From an uncultured Desulfobulbus sp. (lineage in GTDB: Bacteria; Desulfobacterota; Desulfobulbia; Desulfobulbales; Desulfobulbaceae): a stretch of 64,000 nucleotides of DNA. The stretch spans positions 4,124,710 through 4,188,709 of the forward strand of contig OY760916.1 of assembly GCA_963664075.1 (NCBI GenBank), read 5' to 3'. The notes below the pieces were generated by a model. The model searched no databases, was not told the origin of the DNA, and was given only the letters and a program-made list of their open reading frames with translations. Shown here one piece after another: positions 2,020-62,836 of this stretch. The translations under genes and the position numbers were made by a program. The first letter of the stretch is position 1; each line of letters begins with the position of its first letter.

Positions 2020-2082
2020 ATACATGAAATTTTCTTGTGCAAGATGCGTTGTTCAGAACCCATCCGCCGTCGCGGATTCAGG
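2020..2082 (+). repeat. Right-end fragment of the 218-bp MITE-like family
   Basis: 2041-2082 matches 22162-22203 at about 35/42 nt (ATGCRTTGTTCAG...CCGCCGTCRCGGATTCAGG). The upstream ATACATGAA is also shared with the full element. Confidence 0.7.
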
Positions 2083-4985: not shown

Positions 4986-5810
4986 TTAGGACTTTTTCGC
5001 CAATGCTGGCGGCAAAGCACGAACCTGGCCTGCAGTATAGCCCTGTTTCCTGCTCAACTCCCCAAGCCGTTTTATCCGTTCCACCGCCTCGGGATGCGAG
5101 GCAAAATAGCTCGTAATCCCTCGTCCTCGCTCCTCATTCTGCATGGCGCTGAAAAATTCCGTCGCCCCGCCCACATGGCCATAACGACAGTTCAGCGCTG
5201 TCAAGGCCAGACTGTCCGCCCGGGATTCCCGTGATCTGGAGTAGCTTGCCGTCCCCAACCCCACGGCCGGCGTGGCTAATTTGGTCAAACCGGAATCCGA
5301 TCCTGTCAAAAAGGCCATCATGGCGGTCAAGACGATGCCGCGCCCCATGCCACTTAAATGATCGCGATGCTTGAAATGCGCCAGCTCATGGGCCAGCACA
5401 AAGGCGAGACCGTTTTCAGATTGAACCTTGTCGAGAATCCCGGAGAGAACGATAATCCGTCCTCCGGGCAAGGCCAGTGCATTCGCGGTATCTGCCTCCA
5501 CCAGATGGACCGTGACTGGATAGCCGACATCGATACAGCGACCAAGTTCGTACACCAACTGCTGAATATCAGCCTCTCCAGGGAGAGGTTTCCCCACAGA
5601 CTCTTTCACGGTAGGGGAGAGGGCCGTAAAAATCTGGGCCTCCATTTTGGGAGAAATCCACATCACTGCCCTGTCCACCAACCAACCGGAGATGACAAAG
5701 ACAGCTATACAGGTCAGTATCACCCCCGCTAGAAGGACTGCAAATTCCTGCAAGGGGCTGTTGTGACTGACGTTGTTATTCTTCTGAGGATAGGAAGGTT
5801 TGAACTCCAT
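4986..5810 (-). CDS. M48 family zinc metallopeptidase, membrane-anchored
   Basis: ANALALPGG, VLAHELAHF (HExxH), YSRSRESRAD, FASHP; N-terminal TM helix. Confidence 0.9.
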   Translation of the reverse strand: MEFKPSYPQKNNNVSHNSPLQEFAVLLAGVILTCIAVFVISGWLVDRAVMWISPKMEAQIFTALSPTVKESVGKPLPGEADIQQLVYELGRCIDVGYPVTVHLVEADTANALALPGGRIIVLSGILDKVQSENGLAFVLAHELAHFKHRDHLSGMGRGIVLTAMMAFLTGSDSGLTKLATPAVGLGTASYSRSRESRADSLALTALNCRYGHVGGATEFFSAMQNEERGRGITSYFASHPEAVERIKRLGELSRKQGYTAGQVRALPPALAKKS

Positions 5811-5816
5811 CTTTTT

Positions 5817-6281
5817 TTATTGAGGCGACGATTGAAAATAGATAGCAGTTCCGTAGGCCAAAACCTCCACACTCCCCAACTGCTTCTTGCCCCCCTTGGA
5901 AATAGAGGAGGTCTCCAGACGGAGATTGATTATCTGATCAGCCTGTGGGCAGGACTCCAGAAGACGGAGCATCGCCTCGCGTCGGGCACGGTCCACCAGG
6001 GTCTCGTAGGCCTGGACCCGCCCGCCAAAAATATTTCGCAGACCAGCCAAGATCTGTTTAAAGTAATCCACAGAGATAACCACGCTTCCCATGACCAATT
6101 CGCTTCGATCAACGGGGCGATCATCCCCCATAACAGTACGCGCTGCGGTGGTTGGACGGCCAAGTTGCTCCTGCTCCCGGCTGATGATCGAGTTGTAATG
6201 CCGTTTTTCAGCAATGCGCCCGACGAAAAAGCCGAGGCTGACGAGGACAAGTAAAAATCCAAGTTGTATGAGCGCTTCCAT
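5817..6281 (-). CDS. YbjQ/UPF0145-family protein with N-terminal TM helix
   Basis: LAGLRNIFGGRVQAYETLVDRARREA...EVLAYGTA. Confidence 0.88.
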   Translation of the reverse strand: MEALIQLGFLLVLVSLGFFVGRIAEKRHYNSIISREQEQLGRPTTAARTVMGDDRPVDRSELVMGSVVISVDYFKQILAGLRNIFGGRVQAYETLVDRARREAMLRLLESCPQADQIINLRLETSSISKGGKKQLGSVEVLAYGTAIYFQSSPQ

Positions 6282-6284
6282 GGG

Positions 6285-6599
6285 CTACTCCACGGTCACA
6301 GCTGTACCGTAGACATACAGCTCCGAGGCCCCCGCAGCGACGGAGCTGGTGGAAAAACGTACATTGACCACTGCGTTGGCCCCCATCTGGGTTGCCTGGG
6401 CTTTCATGCGGGCAATGGATTCGTCCCGGGACTCCTGAAGCAATTCTGTGTACCCTTTGAGTTCACCCCCAACGATATTTTTCAGGCTGGCCATGAAATC
6501 CCGGCCCACATGTTTGGCCCGGACGGTACTGCCGGAGACAATCCCGTGAAAGGCGACGATAGTTTTGCCAGGAATTCCTTCTGTGTTGGACAGCAACAT
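6285..6599 (-). CDS. YbjQ/UPF0145-family protein
   Basis: RDFMASLKNIVGGELKGYTELLQESR...ELYVYGTAV. Confidence 0.92.
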   Translation of the reverse strand: MLLSNTEGIPGKTIVAFHGIVSGSTVRAKHVGRDFMASLKNIVGGELKGYTELLQESRDESIARMKAQATQMGANAVVNVRFSTSSVAAGASELYVYGTAVTVE

Positions 6600-6705
6600 A
6601 GTTCTTCTCCTTCAAGTAAGGCGTGAATAGAAAATTATTTGCTCTTCTGTTATATGCCTACCATAGTCAGTCTCCAAAGAAATTTTACTGTCCTCCAGGA
6701 AGCGT

Positions 6706-8220
6706 ATGTCGACCATCATTCTCACAACAATTAATGCCCGCTATATTCATGCAAGCCTTGGTCTACGCTGGCTCTATGGCAACCTGGGCGAGTTACAGCA
6801 GGAAGCGGCCATTCAGGAGTATACGCTTACGGATCAGATCACCGATATGGCCGAAAAAATATTGGCTTCCCGACCACGGGTGATTGGTCTTGCGGTCTAT
6901 ATCTGGAATGCGGAACAGTTACGAAAGCTCGTCAGTGTACTCAAACGGGTTGCCCCGGAGACGGTTGTGGTTCTGGGAGGCCCCGAGGTCAGTCATCTGC
7001 CCCTGCGCGTGGATATGCGTGAGGCGGATTACCTTATCCAGGGAGAAGGTGAGTTTGCCTTTGCAGCACTCTGCCGCCAGGTGCTTGCGGATCAGCCTCC
7101 CCGAGAGCGCATAATCAAGGCCGAACCGGTTGCGGTGGAAACGCTCAAGTCTGCCTACCCCTTTTTTACTGAACAGGATCTGGCGCACCGGCTGATCTAT
7201 GTCGAGGCCTCGCGCGGTTGCCCCTTTCGCTGCGAATTCTGCCTCTCCTCCATTGATCCGCGAGTCCGTCCCTTTCCCCTCGACTGGTTTTTGAACGAGA
7301 TCGAGTCACTTTGGCAGCGGGGCGCGCGCACCTTTAAGTTTGTGGACCGAACCTTTAACGCCAATCCTGCCACCGCCGAGCGAATCCTTGATTATTTCCT
7401 GACAAAGGAGCCTCCCTATCATGTTCACTTCGAGGTCATTCCCGATCATTTTCCGGAAACGGTCAAAGAACGGTTAACCAGATTTCCTGAAGGTGCCCTT
7501 CAGCTTGAGGTGGGCATTCAGACCCTGGATCCTCAGATTGCCGATAATATTTCAAGACGCCTCAACTTTGAACGTATTCAGGAAAATCTCGCCTTTCTTG
7601 AGCAGGAGACCACAGCCCATCTTCACGTGGATCTGATTGTTGGTCTTCCCGGGGAGTCCATTGAAGGATTTGGTCGTAACCTCAACACCCTGATGTCACT
7701 TGCCCATGGAGAGATCCAGATCGGTATTCTCAAGAAACTCTCCGGCACCGCCATCAACCGCCACGACCAGATTTTCGGCATGGTCTATTCACCTGATCCT
7801 CCCTACGAAATATTACAAAACGATCTCATTAATTTTCAACAGATGCAGGAGATGAAGCGACTGGCAAGGTTCTGGGACCTGGTCTACAACAGCGGCAACT
7901 TCCGTCACACAGCACCGCTGATCTGGAAGGATGGGGATGTATTTAACGGCTTTTTCGACTTCAGCCGCTGGCTTTATAGCCAGACCCTGGCCACCTGGCA
8001 GATCGGCCTGCCTCGGTTGAGTGAACTGCTCTTTACCTATCTCACCCAAGAACAGGGGATGGAAAAAAGTGCGGTTGCCGACAGTCTGGCCGCAGATATT
8101 CTGGTGATTAAAGGGAGGGTACTCCCTAAAACCGTACAGCAATACGTGACCCAGATGCCCGAAACCCGACGCAGCCTGGGAGATTCACTGATGAAACGTC
8201 AAAAACGGCATACAAGCTGA
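6706..8220 (+). CDS. Cobalamin-binding radical SAM protein (C-terminal DUF4080-like domain)
   Basis: N-terminal B12-binding region (VVVLGGPEVS), EASRGCPFRCEFC (CxxxCxxC), DLIVGLPGE. Confidence 0.9.
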   Translation: MSTIILTTINARYIHASLGLRWLYGNLGELQQEAAIQEYTLTDQITDMAEKILASRPRVIGLAVYIWNAEQLRKLVSVLKRVAPETVVVLGGPEVSHLPLRVDMREADYLIQGEGEFAFAALCRQVLADQPPRERIIKAEPVAVETLKSAYPFFTEQDLAHRLIYVEASRGCPFRCEFCLSSIDPRVRPFPLDWFLNEIESLWQRGARTFKFVDRTFNANPATAERILDYFLTKEPPYHVHFEVIPDHFPETVKERLTRFPEGALQLEVGIQTLDPQIADNISRRLNFERIQENLAFLEQETTAHLHVDLIVGLPGESIEGFGRNLNTLMSLAHGEIQIGILKKLSGTAINRHDQIFGMVYSPDPPYEILQNDLINFQQMQEMKRLARFWDLVYNSGNFRHTAPLIWKDGDVFNGFFDFSRWLYSQTLATWQIGLPRLSELLFTYLTQEQGMEKSAVADSLAADILVIKGRVLPKTVQQYVTQMPETRRSLGDSLMKRQKRHTS

Positions 8221-20998: not shown

Positions 20999-21871
20999 CT
21001 AAAACTGTCCCTCCATAACCTGCAAACACATATCCGCCTTGTTGAGGGTATAGAGGTGGACACCGGGGGCTCCACCGTCAATGAGTTCTTTCACCTGTTG
21101 GCGCGCATAGGCCACACCGATCTCATAGACCGCCTTGGCACCGCCATCTTCATGGGCCTTGAGGAGTTTATTGATCAGCTTGCCTGGAATGCGCGCGTTA
21201 CACATCTCCAGGATAAAGCGCAATGATCCAAGGTTACGAATCGGGAGAACGCCGGGAACGACCGGCACTTCAACCCCACGTCGCTTCAGTCGCTCGACGT
21301 AATCGAAATAGATGCGGTTATCAAAATAGAGCTGGGTGATCACGAAATCCGCGCCGCTTTGCACCTTGCGCCGCATCACCTCAAGATCAGCGGCAAAGGA
21401 GGGCGCCTCCGAATGGGCCTCAGGGAAGCCGGCAACTCCAATGGCAAACTCAGGATGATACTGGCGAATATGGCGCACCAGATCTTCTGCATAGGGAAAA
21501 TTGGCAAACAGCTCCGCGTCTGTGCCGCTAAAGCCGGTGGGACGATCGCCACGCAGGGCTAAAACGTTTTCAATGCCGAGTTTTTTGATTGCCTCTAAAA
21601 AACCGTCGATCTTGTCCTGATCGGCAGTCACACCGGTTAAATGCGGCATGATCTCAAACCCGCAGGTCTTGATCAACTGGCCACATATTTCCAGGGTGTT
21701 AGACTGGGTGGAACCACCAGCACCATAAGTGACCGAGGCAAAAAGAGGATTAAGTTGCCCCAGGTTTTGAGCGACCTCAAAAAATCCCGGCCATTCTTCT
21801 TTATTTTTTGGAGGAAAAAATTCTAACGAAACAAAAGGTTTGTGCGTTTTTATCAGTTGAGGAATCTGCAT
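20999..21871 (-). CDS. metF: 5,10-methylenetetrahydrofolate reductase
   Basis: VSLEFFPPK, SVTYGAGGS, LALRGD, GADFVITQLYFDN, GVHLYTLN. Confidence 0.95.
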   Translation of the reverse strand: MQIPQLIKTHKPFVSLEFFPPKNKEEWPGFFEVAQNLGQLNPLFASVTYGAGGSTQSNTLEICGQLIKTCGFEIMPHLTGVTADQDKIDGFLEAIKKLGIENVLALRGDRPTGFSGTDAELFANFPYAEDLVRHIRQYHPEFAIGVAGFPEAHSEAPSFAADLEVMRRKVQSGADFVITQLYFDNRIYFDYVERLKRRGVEVPVVPGVLPIRNLGSLRFILEMCNARIPGKLINKLLKAHEDGGAKAVYEIGVAYARQQVKELIDGGAPGVHLYTLNKADMCLQVMEGQF

Positions 21872-21985
21872 CCCCGTACTCCTTGGTTGAAGGTACGGTG
21901 GAGGCGCAGGGTCGTGCAGGATGCGCCTTCACCCTAAATATCTCGTTGAAATAGGTCGATACGTAGAGCAGGAACGTTATTCACC

Positions 21986-22203
21986 CCTGAACCCGTGAGC
22001 ATTCATCAGGGCGTCAATTTTGTTGTTTGTGACCTGACGATTAAAGTAAACTTTATCGGCAGGTTGCAGACAATGAAAGTGGCGTGCTGATGGGTGCCCC
22101 AGAGGGCGGCGGGTGAAACTGAACAATACATGAATTTGTAAAAAAACGTTGTCTCGTTAAAAAAATGCATTGTTCAGTGACCACCCGCCGTCACGGATTC
22201 AGG
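21986..22203. mobile_element. Putative 218-bp MITE, full copy, two internal hairpins
   Basis: 13-bp terminal inverted repeats CCTGAACCCGTGA / TCACGGATTCAGG (12/13); flanks TCACC and TCATC resemble a 5-bp target duplication; related fragments at 2020, 40549, 42740 and possibly 62799. Confidence 0.75.
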
Positions 22204-22226
22204 TCATCTACCACGGAGGGAAGACA

Positions 22227-22385
22227 ATGACACCGCGCCAAGCCTTACGTATTCTCATGCTCAGCCCCTGTTACTGGCTCATGAGTCTTGCCGATCGAAA
22301 ACGGTTAATCCGTGACTTTTGCAGTTCTTTTGCATCTGCCTGGTTCCCGGAGTCGGTACTGCGCAAGAAGGAAACCACCGGGTAA
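22227..22385 (+). CDS. Small hypothetical protein (52 aa, MTPRQALRILMLSPCYW...)
   Basis: GGAGGG ribosome-binding site 6 nt before ATG 22227; the stop converges on the J-domain gene. Confidence 0.6.
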   Translation: MTPRQALRILMLSPCYWLMSLADRKRLIRDFCSSFASAWFPESVLRKKETTG

Positions 22386-22396
22386 TTACTCAAGCC

Positions 22397-22723
22397 TTAG
22401 CGCTTCCTCTTTTTGCCGCTCCAGAGGGGATCCTGACCAAAACGTGCCTGCCACCAGTCTTCTGGATCGTAAATATCCAGATCATCCTCACCGGCATTCT
22501 CCCGTTTGAGCGGGTAGCGATAACTATCGCAGTAGCGGGTGAGGGTTTCATAGGCAGCGGTGATGCGGTACATCTTTTCACCGTTCGTGTCACCGCCGGT
22601 GTCGGGATGATGGAGCTTACTCAGGCGGTGAAAGGCCCGCTTGATCTCTCCCAGCGTGGCGCGCTCATTCAACCCCAAAACCTGAGCCGCCTTTTCAATG
22701 GCCTGCCACTCTTTGCTGTTCAC
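22397..22723 (-). CDS. Small DnaJ (J-domain) protein
   Basis: EIKRAFHRLSKLHHPD...ITAAYETL. Confidence 0.88.
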   Translation of the reverse strand: MNSKEWQAIEKAAQVLGLNERATLGEIKRAFHRLSKLHHPDTGGDTNGEKMYRITAAYETLTRYCDSYRYPLKRENAGEDDLDIYDPEDWWQARFGQDPLWSGKKRKR

Positions 22724-23337
22724 TCCTTATCCTCGGCCTTACCCTTCCATGATTTTTCGGTGCCTCGAATCAGCCGCCCGATATTCTGGTAATGCTTGCC
22801 CCAGATCATGAGCACGACAAACACGGCCAACCACATTTTCCATGCCGGTACATGGAGAAGCGGCAGCCAGAGCAGCATGGAAAGCGACCCCAGAAGCGAA
22901 CCGAGTGAGACAAATCCAGAAAAATAGACAGCACCAAGAAAAACTATCAGGCAACCGAGCACGGCCAGCGGTGCCAGGTAGAGAAAAGCCCCAAGTGCGG
23001 TGGCCACCCCTTTGCCGCCTTTGAAGCCCAGGTAAACTGGAAACATATGTCCCAAAACCGAGGCAGCGCCACAGAAGGCTATAATAACCTCGTGGCCAGC
23101 AGATTCCCCAAGGGCTAGCCCCACGACAAACATGGGCAGGAATCCTTTCAAGAGATCACAGAGCAGGGTCAGCGCTCCCAGCTTTTTTCCTAAAAGGCGA
23201 GTAACATTGGTGGCGCCAATATTTTTACTTCCCTGATTCCGAATATCTATGCCGCTACCGCGGGAGAGAACCAGGCCAAAGGGGACAGCTCCCAGCAGAT
23301 AAGATAAAACGACACAAAGAATTCCAATACTGTTCAT
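22720..23337 (-). CDS. plsY: Glycerol-3-phosphate acyltransferase PlsY
   Basis: GSKNIGATNVTR, GHMFPVYLGFKGGKGVAT, HYQNIGRL. Confidence 0.95.
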   Translation of the reverse strand: MNSIGILCVVLSYLLGAVPFGLVLSRGSGIDIRNQGSKNIGATNVTRLLGKKLGALTLLCDLLKGFLPMFVVGLALGESAGHEVIIAFCGAASVLGHMFPVYLGFKGGKGVATALGAFLYLAPLAVLGCLIVFLGAVYFSGFVSLGSLLGSLSMLLWLPLLHVPAWKMWLAVFVVLMIWGKHYQNIGRLIRGTEKSWKGKAEDKE

Positions 23338-24230: not shown

Positions 24231-24512
24231 AGCGCTCCCTGTTTTGTAAACTTCCTGCATCCGTGAGGGAACTTGGTACACTACACAATAAAACGCCGAA
24301 AAACAAGCGGCCACGGGCCAAGTCGATACAGGAGAGAACTTTACTTTACCAGCCAAACTGATTACATACCCAAAGAACATGGGAGTTGAACTCTCTGGTA
24401 CCCACGTATTTTATCGACAGCATCCCCAGCCGCTTTTCTGACACCTGCTCGGGAAACATGCGGGCGATGCAGTATCTTTTTTTGGTGCCTGGCGCCACAT
24501 ACAGACAAGACT

Positions 24513-38857: not shown

Positions 38858-40615
<1,758 letters not shown>

Positions 40616-40730: not shown

Positions 40731-41177
40731 TCAGCGACCAGTTCCCTGTGCTGACCAGATTTCTGTAACCTTCTCGATCAACGCACGATGCTGGGCATCA
40801 CTCAAATCAACAAAAGGTGAGTTATCATAGGTGGTATCGCGATTTTCCACCACCAAGACCTTGGCATCTTCACTTAAGGTATGCGTATGCCAGACCGCCT
40901 TTTTCACGTTGTACACCTGGCCAGGAACCAGGGACTCGGCATACACCTGCTCAACGGTTTCTGCGCCCTCACCGACAAAAAGAATGCAGCGCCCGCTCAA
41001 AAGCACAAAGACCTCATCGGTCTCGTTGTGGCGCTGCATGCGGGTCAGATGTTCAGGCAGCAGGTCCTCACTGAAATTGAGAATCGCCACCCGCCAGGAT
41101 TCAAAGTCAACCAGGGGTTGGTAACTGGCAGCGTCGTGGCGTTTAACCTCAAGGATCCTCTCTGGAGCGTTGATCAT
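40731..41177 (-). CDS. Cupin-fold protein of unknown function
   Basis: [14 protein letters not shown] and [11 protein letters not shown] cupin motifs; ATGA overlap with the ABC ATPase gene. Confidence 0.75.
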
Positions 41178-41929
41178 CGATTTGCAGGTGCCAGAATCTG
41201 TTGCAAAAAGAGCTGACTGCGCGGATTCTGCGGGTTGGTGAAAAAGGTATCTGGAGGAGCGACTTCGACAATGGCTCCGGCATCCATAAAGACGACCTTA
41301 TCGGCGACCTCGCGGGCAAAGCCCATCTCATGGGTCACCACCACCATGGTCATGCCTTCCTTGGCCAGGGCAACCATAACCTCGAGCACCTCATTGATCA
41401 TCTCAGGATCAAGGGCTGAGGTGGGCTCGTCAAAGAGCATGATCTTGGGCTCCATGGCAAGTGCGCGAGCAATGGCCACCCGCTGTTGCTGACCACCGGA
41501 GAGCTGAATGGGAAAATGGTGGGCCCGGTCACTCATGCCCACCTTTTCCAGCAGGTTCATGGCCAGGGACTCGGCCTGGGCCCGCTCCATTTTTTTGAGT
41601 TTGATCGGAGCCAGGGTCAGGTTATCCAGAACCGATTTATGTTTAAAGAGGTTAAAGCTCTGGAAAACCATGCCTACCTCCATGCGAATCTGATTAATAT
41701 CCTCGTCGGCACTGTACAAATTATGACCATCAACCACGATAGCACCGGAGTCAATGGACTCAAGACGATTGATGGTACGCAGCAGGGTCGACTTTCCCGA
41801 ACCGGAGGGTCCGAGTACCACCACCTTTTCACCCTGCTGGATATCCATATTGACATCACAGAGAGCTCGGTAGCTGCCGAAATATTTATTGATCTGCTGG
41901 AGTTGAATGATGGGTTCAGCGGCGTTCAT
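41174..41929 (-). CDS. Polar amino acid ABC transporter ATP-binding protein
   Basis: [42 protein letters not shown]. Confidence 0.95.
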
Positions 41930-42704: not shown

Positions 42705-42739
42705 GGGACTATCGCAAAATATTTTTTTAAAACCAACAC

Positions 42740-42851
42740 CCAGAATTCATGAGCGTTCATCGGTGCGTCAGTTTCATTGCCTGCAATCTGCCGATTAAAG
42801 TAAACTTTATCGGTAGATTGCAGGCAATGAAGGTGGCGTACTGATGGGCAC
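42740..42851 (+). repeat. Left half (first hairpin) of the 218-bp MITE-like element
   Basis: Ungapped 89/112 identity to 21986-22097. Confidence 0.85.
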
Positions 42852-62798: not shown

Positions 62799-62836
62799 CT
62801 AGAATCCGGGTGCAACCACTCTGTCACGGACTCTAA
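62799..62836. repeat. Possible degenerate short MITE derivative upstream of ppk1
   Basis: TAGAATCCG...GTCACGGACTCTA palindrome resembling 40549-40588. Confidence 0.35.

Follow-up and report, generated by a model that had tools for sequence, protein, structure and literature searches.

The 218-bp segment at 21986–22203 of the window, the whole 64-kb stretch of DNA analysed here, is a real mobile element, a bacterial MITE, and shows every feature by which membership in that class can be tested. The explanation that best covers all observations is that of a non-autonomous MITE of the IS1380 type with an interior that folds on one strand and appears to have been kept by the element lineage; we give this reading a probability of about 0.88. 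The MITE family is apparently undescribed, its kind (a MITE with IS1380 ends) is already known, and its conserved fold is unexpected. The assignment to mobile elements is ordinary, and the strand-biased fold that spans phyla is the part worth following up.

The window copy and its empty site

In terms of boundaries, direct reading of the sequence confirms the 218-bp element with terminal inverted repeats and near-duplicated flanks that was proposed in the preliminary description. The left repeat, CCTGAACCCGTGA (21986–21998, plus strand), for which the family consensus is CCTGAATCCGTGA, and the right repeat, TCACGGATTCAGG (22191–22203, plus strand), are complementary at 12 of 13 positions, compared with 13 of 13 in many relatives. 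The target-site duplication reads TCACC on the left (21981–21985) and TCATC on the right (22204–22208), a match at four of five positions.

The element sits between metF (20999–21871, minus strand) and an ORF of 52 aa (22227–22385, plus strand) that starts 23 nt past the element and has no Pfam or other family match; plsY (minus strand) is next after this small ORF. A sequence at 22304 within the small ORF, GTTAATCCGTGAC, resembles the terminal repeat, probably by chance. The lack of coding capacity was judged solely from the small size of the ORFs that overlap the element, which occur on the minus strand, are mechanical and encode 43–54 aa. The earlier statement that the element has no ORF holds in the sense that no sizeable one is present, and has to be amended for these mechanical minus-strand frames.

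Mobility of the element was assessed in public sequencing runs, of which X1 and X2 contain the window and X3–X10 represent relatives that share about one-fifth of the sampled words or fewer; contigs were compared over window positions 21300–22900. A contig of 967 bp from X3 and one of 9,252 bp from X4 span both flanks and omit 21981–22203. The gap of 223 bp corresponds to the 218-bp element plus one 5-bp copy of the flank, so that the precise empty site sought as a check on the element is present in both strains. In run X1, the read depth is 165–312 over the element versus 9.5–12.3 in its flanks, which suggests that the source genome carries roughly 15–30 copies, and numerous contigs stop matching at 21986 and at 22203/4 and then continue into unrelated sequence. 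Repeats of this family thus fragment short-read assemblies. Two window sites, that of the 218-bp copy and that of a 40-bp copy described below, are polymorphic for presence and absence between close relatives, and the 218-bp copy probably reached the intergenic region between metF and the small ORF once its lineage had separated from the nearest sequenced strains. Through such insertions, the family generates differences between strains beside housekeeping genes, here metF, pyrG and the aconitase gene.

Relatives in the window and in other genomes

Three relatives of the element were verified within the window, all of which had been reported in the preliminary description. The first, at 42740–42851 (plus strand; nhmmer E 1e-21), is truncated and comprises a degenerate left end and the P2 hairpin described below, with no right end. 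Its gapless identity to the window copy, 89 of 112 positions, reproduces the earlier count exactly. On one side it has a solute-binding-protein gene, with its stop codon and terminator, and on the other the start of a permease gene, both genes on the minus strand; it is an older copy, as it is common to strains X3, X4 and X7. In X4, about 28 additional letters are found immediately to its left (window 42728–42740), and the left boundary of this old copy therefore differs between strains.

The second relative, at 2021–2082 (plus strand; nhmmer E 2e-4), is truncated at its 5′ side and retains the distal part of the P4 hairpin and the right end CCGTCGCGGATTCAGG; it matches the window copy at 42 of 63 positions without gaps, and the aconitase start codon is 93 nt downstream. 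The third, at 40549–40588 (minus strand, that is, in the opposite orientation to the window copy), is a 40-bp hairpin made up of both ends and a 14-nt spacer, with the pyrG start codon 29 nt downstream. In X4 this ends-only copy is absent, and 16 diverged letters stand in place of 40531–40588. All three relatives are best viewed as probable older copies that have been truncated or have collapsed.

A fifth copy had been suggested at 62799–62836. This degenerate hairpin has partial likeness to the ends, no profile match and an unchanged sequence in related strains; its membership is not demonstrable, and it stays an unconfirmed candidate. The 15-mer of the right end occurs in the window as three exact matches and one site with two mismatches (24255–24269), and shuffled sequences give 0.19 matches at two or fewer mismatches. 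At a separate stretch, 41240–41551, contigs from several runs pile up to a depth in the thousands at 85% likeness. This is no repeat of the source genome; it is a conserved section of an ORF (41174–41929) next to an ABC permease gene and draws in contigs from other organisms.

Beyond the window, at least 120 loci in species-representative genomes match the right end CCGTCRCGGATTCAG. The matches listed concentrate in Desulfobulbales, and the hosts among them include Desulfobulbus alkaliphilus DSM 24258 (at least 17 right ends among the matches listed), D. rhabdoformis DSM 8777, the bacterium BMS3Bbin14, and MAGs of Desulfocapsaceae and Desulfurivibrionaceae; copies from the PVC group are also among the matches listed, in MAGs of Verrucomicrobiota, Kiritimatiellia and Lentisphaeria. 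At least 46 elements among the matches listed are bounded by both ends, which supplies the further repeat-bounded copies that the preliminary description had called for. In these 46 elements, the 5-bp target duplications are perfect in 23 and have one mismatch in 11 (a control at a 7-nt offset gave 0 perfect and 1 with one mismatch), and the target sites are 76% A+T. The same 46 elements fall into size classes of 212–221 bp (19 copies), about 105–140 bp and 36–55 bp, and the short forms overall span 36–142 bp. A copy in D. rhabdoformis (L088) matches the window copy from end to end at 77% identity and has unrelated flanks. Every copy inspected has housekeeping genes as neighbours, copies are frequently situated within operons, and the adjoining genes are unrelated from copy to copy. 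The sulfate-reducing Desulfobulbales, in which mobile DNA is poorly charted, thereby gain a MITE family that is widespread and still active.

One 8-kb locus of D. alkaliphilus (L011), which holds at least five family copies, contains a tandem pair between a glcD-like and a glcF-like gene; the two members (5049–5158 and 5164–5273) are without P2 and P3, and each is flanked by ATCAT.

The arrangement of copies relative to genes bears on whether the element mainly donates outward promoters or 5′ leaders to the genes at its right end, as had been proposed. Three copies in the window do place their right end 23–93 nt upstream of a start codon, as originally noted, and ISEcp1, a member of the IS1380 family, drives neighbouring genes. 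However, no sigma-70-like site was found inside the window copy or two copies at another locus (L029), and among 40 oriented copies the right-end gene runs in the same direction in 16 and in the opposing direction in 19, with all four arrangements of left and right neighbours represented (co/co 9, anti/anti 10, co/anti 8, anti/co 5). With no such site and an unbiased orientation, the proposal is unsupported, and we consider donation as the main role of the element to be very doubtful.

IS1380-family elements with the same ends

The CC-starting ends and short duplications had led to the guess of a link to the IS1380 family. Transposase genes were looked for, and none is present within the 64-kb window, beside unpaired ends or in MITE-dense loci (where housekeeping genes only were seen), or beside any MITE among the matches listed in the 120 genome loci. 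A tblastn search of the genome loci with the ISEcp1 transposase also gave no match; the query is 100% identical to annotated plasmid records. The ends of ISEcp1 read CCTAGATTCTACG and CCTAAATTCCACG.

Two further searches were made outside these loci. An alignment of three IS1380 transposases, searched against metagenomes, recovered 80 elements (L131–L210) of the IS1247 clade and of that clade only. Their right end is found at a fixed 183 bp past the transposase stop codon and reads CCTGAATCCGACC, CCTGTATCCGAGC, CCTAAATCCGCTT and similar, and its outer 10 nt, CCTGAATCCG, are common to the MITE and the IS1247-clade right ends. With that pattern, the left ends of these 80 elements proved much less easy to locate. 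In the second search, viral contigs were scanned for 14-nt MITE ends, and the matches were then searched with IS1380 transposases. Viral-contig matches to the 16-nt right end were set aside as chance, one of them lying inside an integrase gene.

Complete IS1380-family elements with the ends of the MITE were found in this way. An element of 1,725 bp (L264, 6904–8628) has CCTGAATCCGTGA at both ends, is flanked by CTAA on either side as a 4-bp duplication, and encodes a 458-aa ORF that scores 312 bits on the model NF033539, "IS1380 family transposase" (cut-off 180). A second element of 1,699 bp on an IMG/VR contig (L283, 3420–5118; protein P0002) scores 380 bits on NF033539. Its transposase is identical to a protein of Heliomicrobium modesticaldum Ice1 annotated "transposase, IS4 family", a name that looks wrong in light of the 380-bit score. 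Two more elements, L320 and L221, start with the same end sequence and run off the end of the contig or locus, and two that were reached through a protein search, L435 and L438, measure 1,730 and 1,721 bp and are bounded by CCTGAATCCGTGA or CCTGAATCCGTTA. The transposases of L264, L283, L320 and L221 are 36–46% identical to one another and about 22% identical to those of ISEcp1, IS1247 and IS1678, and the clade typified by L264 numbers more than 7,300 proteins at E ≤ 1e-30.

The family end consensus is identical to the ends of L264 and L283, and since the same ends occur on elements that encode an IS1380 transposase, the ends of the MITE are those of one particular, large clade within the IS1380 family. 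The guess of an IS1380 link is thereby borne out through identical 13-bp ends on complete elements elsewhere, and the transposase gene with the same ends that was to be looked for exists in other organisms (L264, L283, L435 and L438). The MITE family is in this manner tied to an IS1380 clade of more than 7,000 proteins, partly misannotated as IS4.

As for the marks of an IS1380 derivative, CC-starting ends that match those of elements with an IS1380 transposase were found, as was a duplication of 4–5 bp; an interior derived by internal deletion was not found in the six sampled IS. With three MITE profiles, nhmmer detected no interior likeness in L264, L283, L320, L221, L435 or L438, which are a few members of a clade with more than 7,000 proteins; within this sample, the idea that the interior arose from such an IS through internal deletion finds no support.

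The preliminary description had the element as non-autonomous and mobilised in trans. The empty site, the duplications and the IS1380 elements with the same ends speak for this, and the step in trans within the host is drawn by analogy, since no transposase is present in the window or beside the listed MITEs; mobilisation in trans in the source genome is on these grounds probable. A DDE transposase of the IS1380 clade, encoded elsewhere in the genome or formerly present there, would bind the 13-bp ends CCTGAATCCGTGA and would cut the element out or copy it. Insertion would take place at A+T-rich intergenic sites through a 5-bp staggered cut, the repair of which would give rise to the 5-bp duplication.

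Two of the IS-bearing loci have features of their own. In L221, two different IS1380-type elements adjoin (5802–7019 and 7143–7971), the second of which starts with CCTGAATCCGTGAG and runs off the locus end. In L264, the left end is a 55-bp hairpin (6904–6958) in which the terminal repeat is joined through a loop to its own inverted copy, and it resembles the 40-bp ends-only copy of the window. A hairpin at the left end was considered as a general trait of the clade and rejected, as it is seen only in L264 among the six sampled members.

The family shares with the IS1380 family (ISEcp1, IS1247, IS1678; NF033539/PF13701) its CC-starting ends and 4–5-bp duplications, and more closely with the clade of L264, L283, L435 and L438 the identical 13-bp inverted ends; with the IS1247 clade it has the outer 10 nt of the right end in common. 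It differs from these IS in its length of 218 bp, the absence of a transposase and an interior unlike that of the sampled members. Small, non-coding, intergenic, multicopy MITEs with inverted ends, in which the whole element is able to fold into a long stem, include Correia/NEMIS in Neisseria, ERIC in enterobacteria and BOX/RUP in pneumococci. The present family resembles them in all of these respects, whereas its ends, its 5-bp duplication (Correia elements duplicate TA), the associated IS family, the four-helix junction, the retention of length and fold across phyla, and the wobble bias toward one strand set it apart.

A non-mobile origin was also weighed, in which the segment would be a fixed cis-regulatory RNA such as a riboswitch-like leader, or a REP/REPIN repeat handled by a RAYT (HUH) enzyme. 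The intergenic position and strong hairpins are what such a repeat would show, and the copy at 42740–42851, between binding-protein and permease genes, recalls classical REP elements, which likewise form hairpin repeats between the genes of an operon. However, the precise empty site, 5-bp duplications as the rule, unrelated neighbouring genes from copy to copy and ends identical to those of IS1380 elements all run counter to a fixed or REP-like sequence. REP elements are not known to leave a target duplication, nor are REPINs known to have target duplications or true inverted ends matching a DDE-type IS; the duplications and DDE-type ends therefore place the family outside REP/REPIN, and a non-mobile origin is extremely improbable.

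With regard to novelty, Rfam gave 0 matches at the gathering threshold in the window and in five loci with copies of families A, B and C, and at E up to 10 it returned only long-hairpin look-alikes, such as miRNA precursors far below threshold. E. coli genomes gave no match to the element, a blastn search of a plasmid collection with family A and B copies found none, and full-text literature searches yielded no description under the end sequences, under IS1380 with MITE, or under Desulfobulbus with MITE. The claim of an undescribed family agrees with these results from Rfam, the literature and the plasmid collection.

A one-strand fold in the element interior

As a single strand, the window copy is predicted to fold into a four-helix junction in which helix P1 is formed by the two ends paired with each other. 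P2 (21999–22097, plus strand) is a hairpin that spans about 99 nt, contains a conserved purine–purine mismatch and carries the strongest covariation. P3 (22098–22106, plus strand) is a 9-nt GC mini-hairpin, CCC-AGA-GGG, within GCCCCAGAGGGC, after which comes the conserved GGCGGGTGAA. P4 (22107–22190, plus strand) consists of a GC closing helix, GGCGGGTG/CACCCGCC, around an A+T-rich hairpin whose sequence differs between families. The two long hairpins of the preliminary description are thus both present, at 21999–22097 and about 22107–22190. The predicted RNA fold has an energy of −112.5 kcal/mol versus −57.7 ± 4.9 for shuffled sequences (z −11.2; 0 of 200 shuffles as good), and the opposite strand reaches −94.5 kcal/mol.

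One plan recurs across taxa despite great difference in sequence. The left end and GAGCGTTCG are followed by a hairpin of about 100 nt with the purine–purine mismatch at a constant stem depth, and then by GCCC-NNNN-GGGC, GGCGG(G)TGAA, a variable A+T-rich hairpin and AAGCCGTCACGGATTCAGG. Both the length of about 216 bp and the four-helix fold are kept across Desulfobulbales and Verrucomicrobiota. The motif GGCGGGTGAA was also considered as the relic of a transposase start and dropped, the downstream codons not being conserved between families.

Covariation was evaluated on plain MAFFT alignments with no structure fitting. In ten family-A copies, 94.7% of the cells in 66 consensus pairs are paired, and double-sided changes are observed at 21 of the 66 pairs, compared with 10 ± 2.1 in shuffles (0 of 500 reach 21) and 5–8 pairs in controls with slid partners. 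The left halves of 23 copies from families A–E align nearly without gaps, with double changes at 23 of 26 consensus pairs. The pairing is biased toward one strand, with 97 G·U versus 14 A·C cells, although the cells counted in these pair statistics are non-independent events. Of 25 copies, 21 have the more stable fold on the top strand, and mean energies are −92.4 versus −77.9 kcal/mol. We read this asymmetry as selection on the top strand, because the two orientations of the copies should average out any mutational strand bias. With DNA energy parameters the same strand asymmetry is obtained (−62.8 versus −52.8 kcal/mol), and RNA and single-stranded DNA are therefore not separable by this comparison.

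On the reading favoured here, P2, P3 and P4 make up a module, folded on one strand, that has been kept by the element lineage. No P2- or P3-like feature is present in the six sampled IS with the same ends, and the 5′ leaders of ISEcp1 and IS1247, in contrast to the MITE interior, are not significantly structured (z −1.2 and −0.8). Subfamilies that are without P2, or without P2 and P3, have common deletion junctions and their own duplications at different sites, and the interior is therefore dispensable for transposition. Selection on the fold would most probably act on RNA from read-through transcription, with single-stranded DNA as the alternative. That the module of about 190 nt has a function as a single-stranded nucleic acid, RNA or DNA, for the transposon or its host is a tentative idea that we regard as doubtful.

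One version of this idea holds that the interior is a functional structured RNA, an sRNA or a cis module, that uses the MITE as its vehicle; this would add to the MITE reading and not replace it. Transcribed from the strand that runs from the left to the right end, such an RNA might act on the host or the transposase, as a regulator, decoy or processing signal, for example. It would account for the constant length of 212–221 bp in 19 full copies from different taxa among the matches listed, for the heavy compensatory changes, for the excess of G·U over A·C cells, and for the conserved unpaired motifs, namely the purine–purine mismatch of P2, the P3 stem and GGCGGGTGAA. It is at odds with the lack of an internal promoter-like site from which the RNA could be made and with the random orientation of copies to host transcription, as a result of which only about half of them can be read on the right strand. 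It also fits poorly with the continued spread of subfamilies that have lost P2, or P2 and P3, and with the absence of a match in Rfam. We consider a functional RNA of this kind possible, albeit somewhat unlikely.

The other version has the strand-specific fold act as single-stranded DNA, for example when the top strand is exposed at a replication fork, to bring the two ends together or to time transposition. Comparable strand dependence is known for IS200/IS605 elements. The asymmetry is equally visible with DNA parameters, and folding would juxtapose the ends, as the P1 stem consists of the ends themselves. Against this, IS1380 transposases are DDE enzymes that act on duplex ends and leave target duplications, the short forms without P2 or P3 transpose, and the copies show no bias with respect to gene direction, which is a rough proxy for the direction of replication. 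A role as single-stranded DNA is thus improbable.

If the module does work as a single-stranded nucleic acid, the family would reveal either a class of structured RNAs dispersed by a DDE-type MITE or a step specific to one strand in the transposition of IS1380-type elements. With this fold, the question whether selection can act on a DDE-type non-autonomous element in its single-stranded form becomes cheap to test.

The build of P2 itself varies in one copy from D. alkaliphilus (L054, 2594–2729), in which an inverted left end takes the place of the normal right arm in closing the hairpin, and the variant is one long palindrome.
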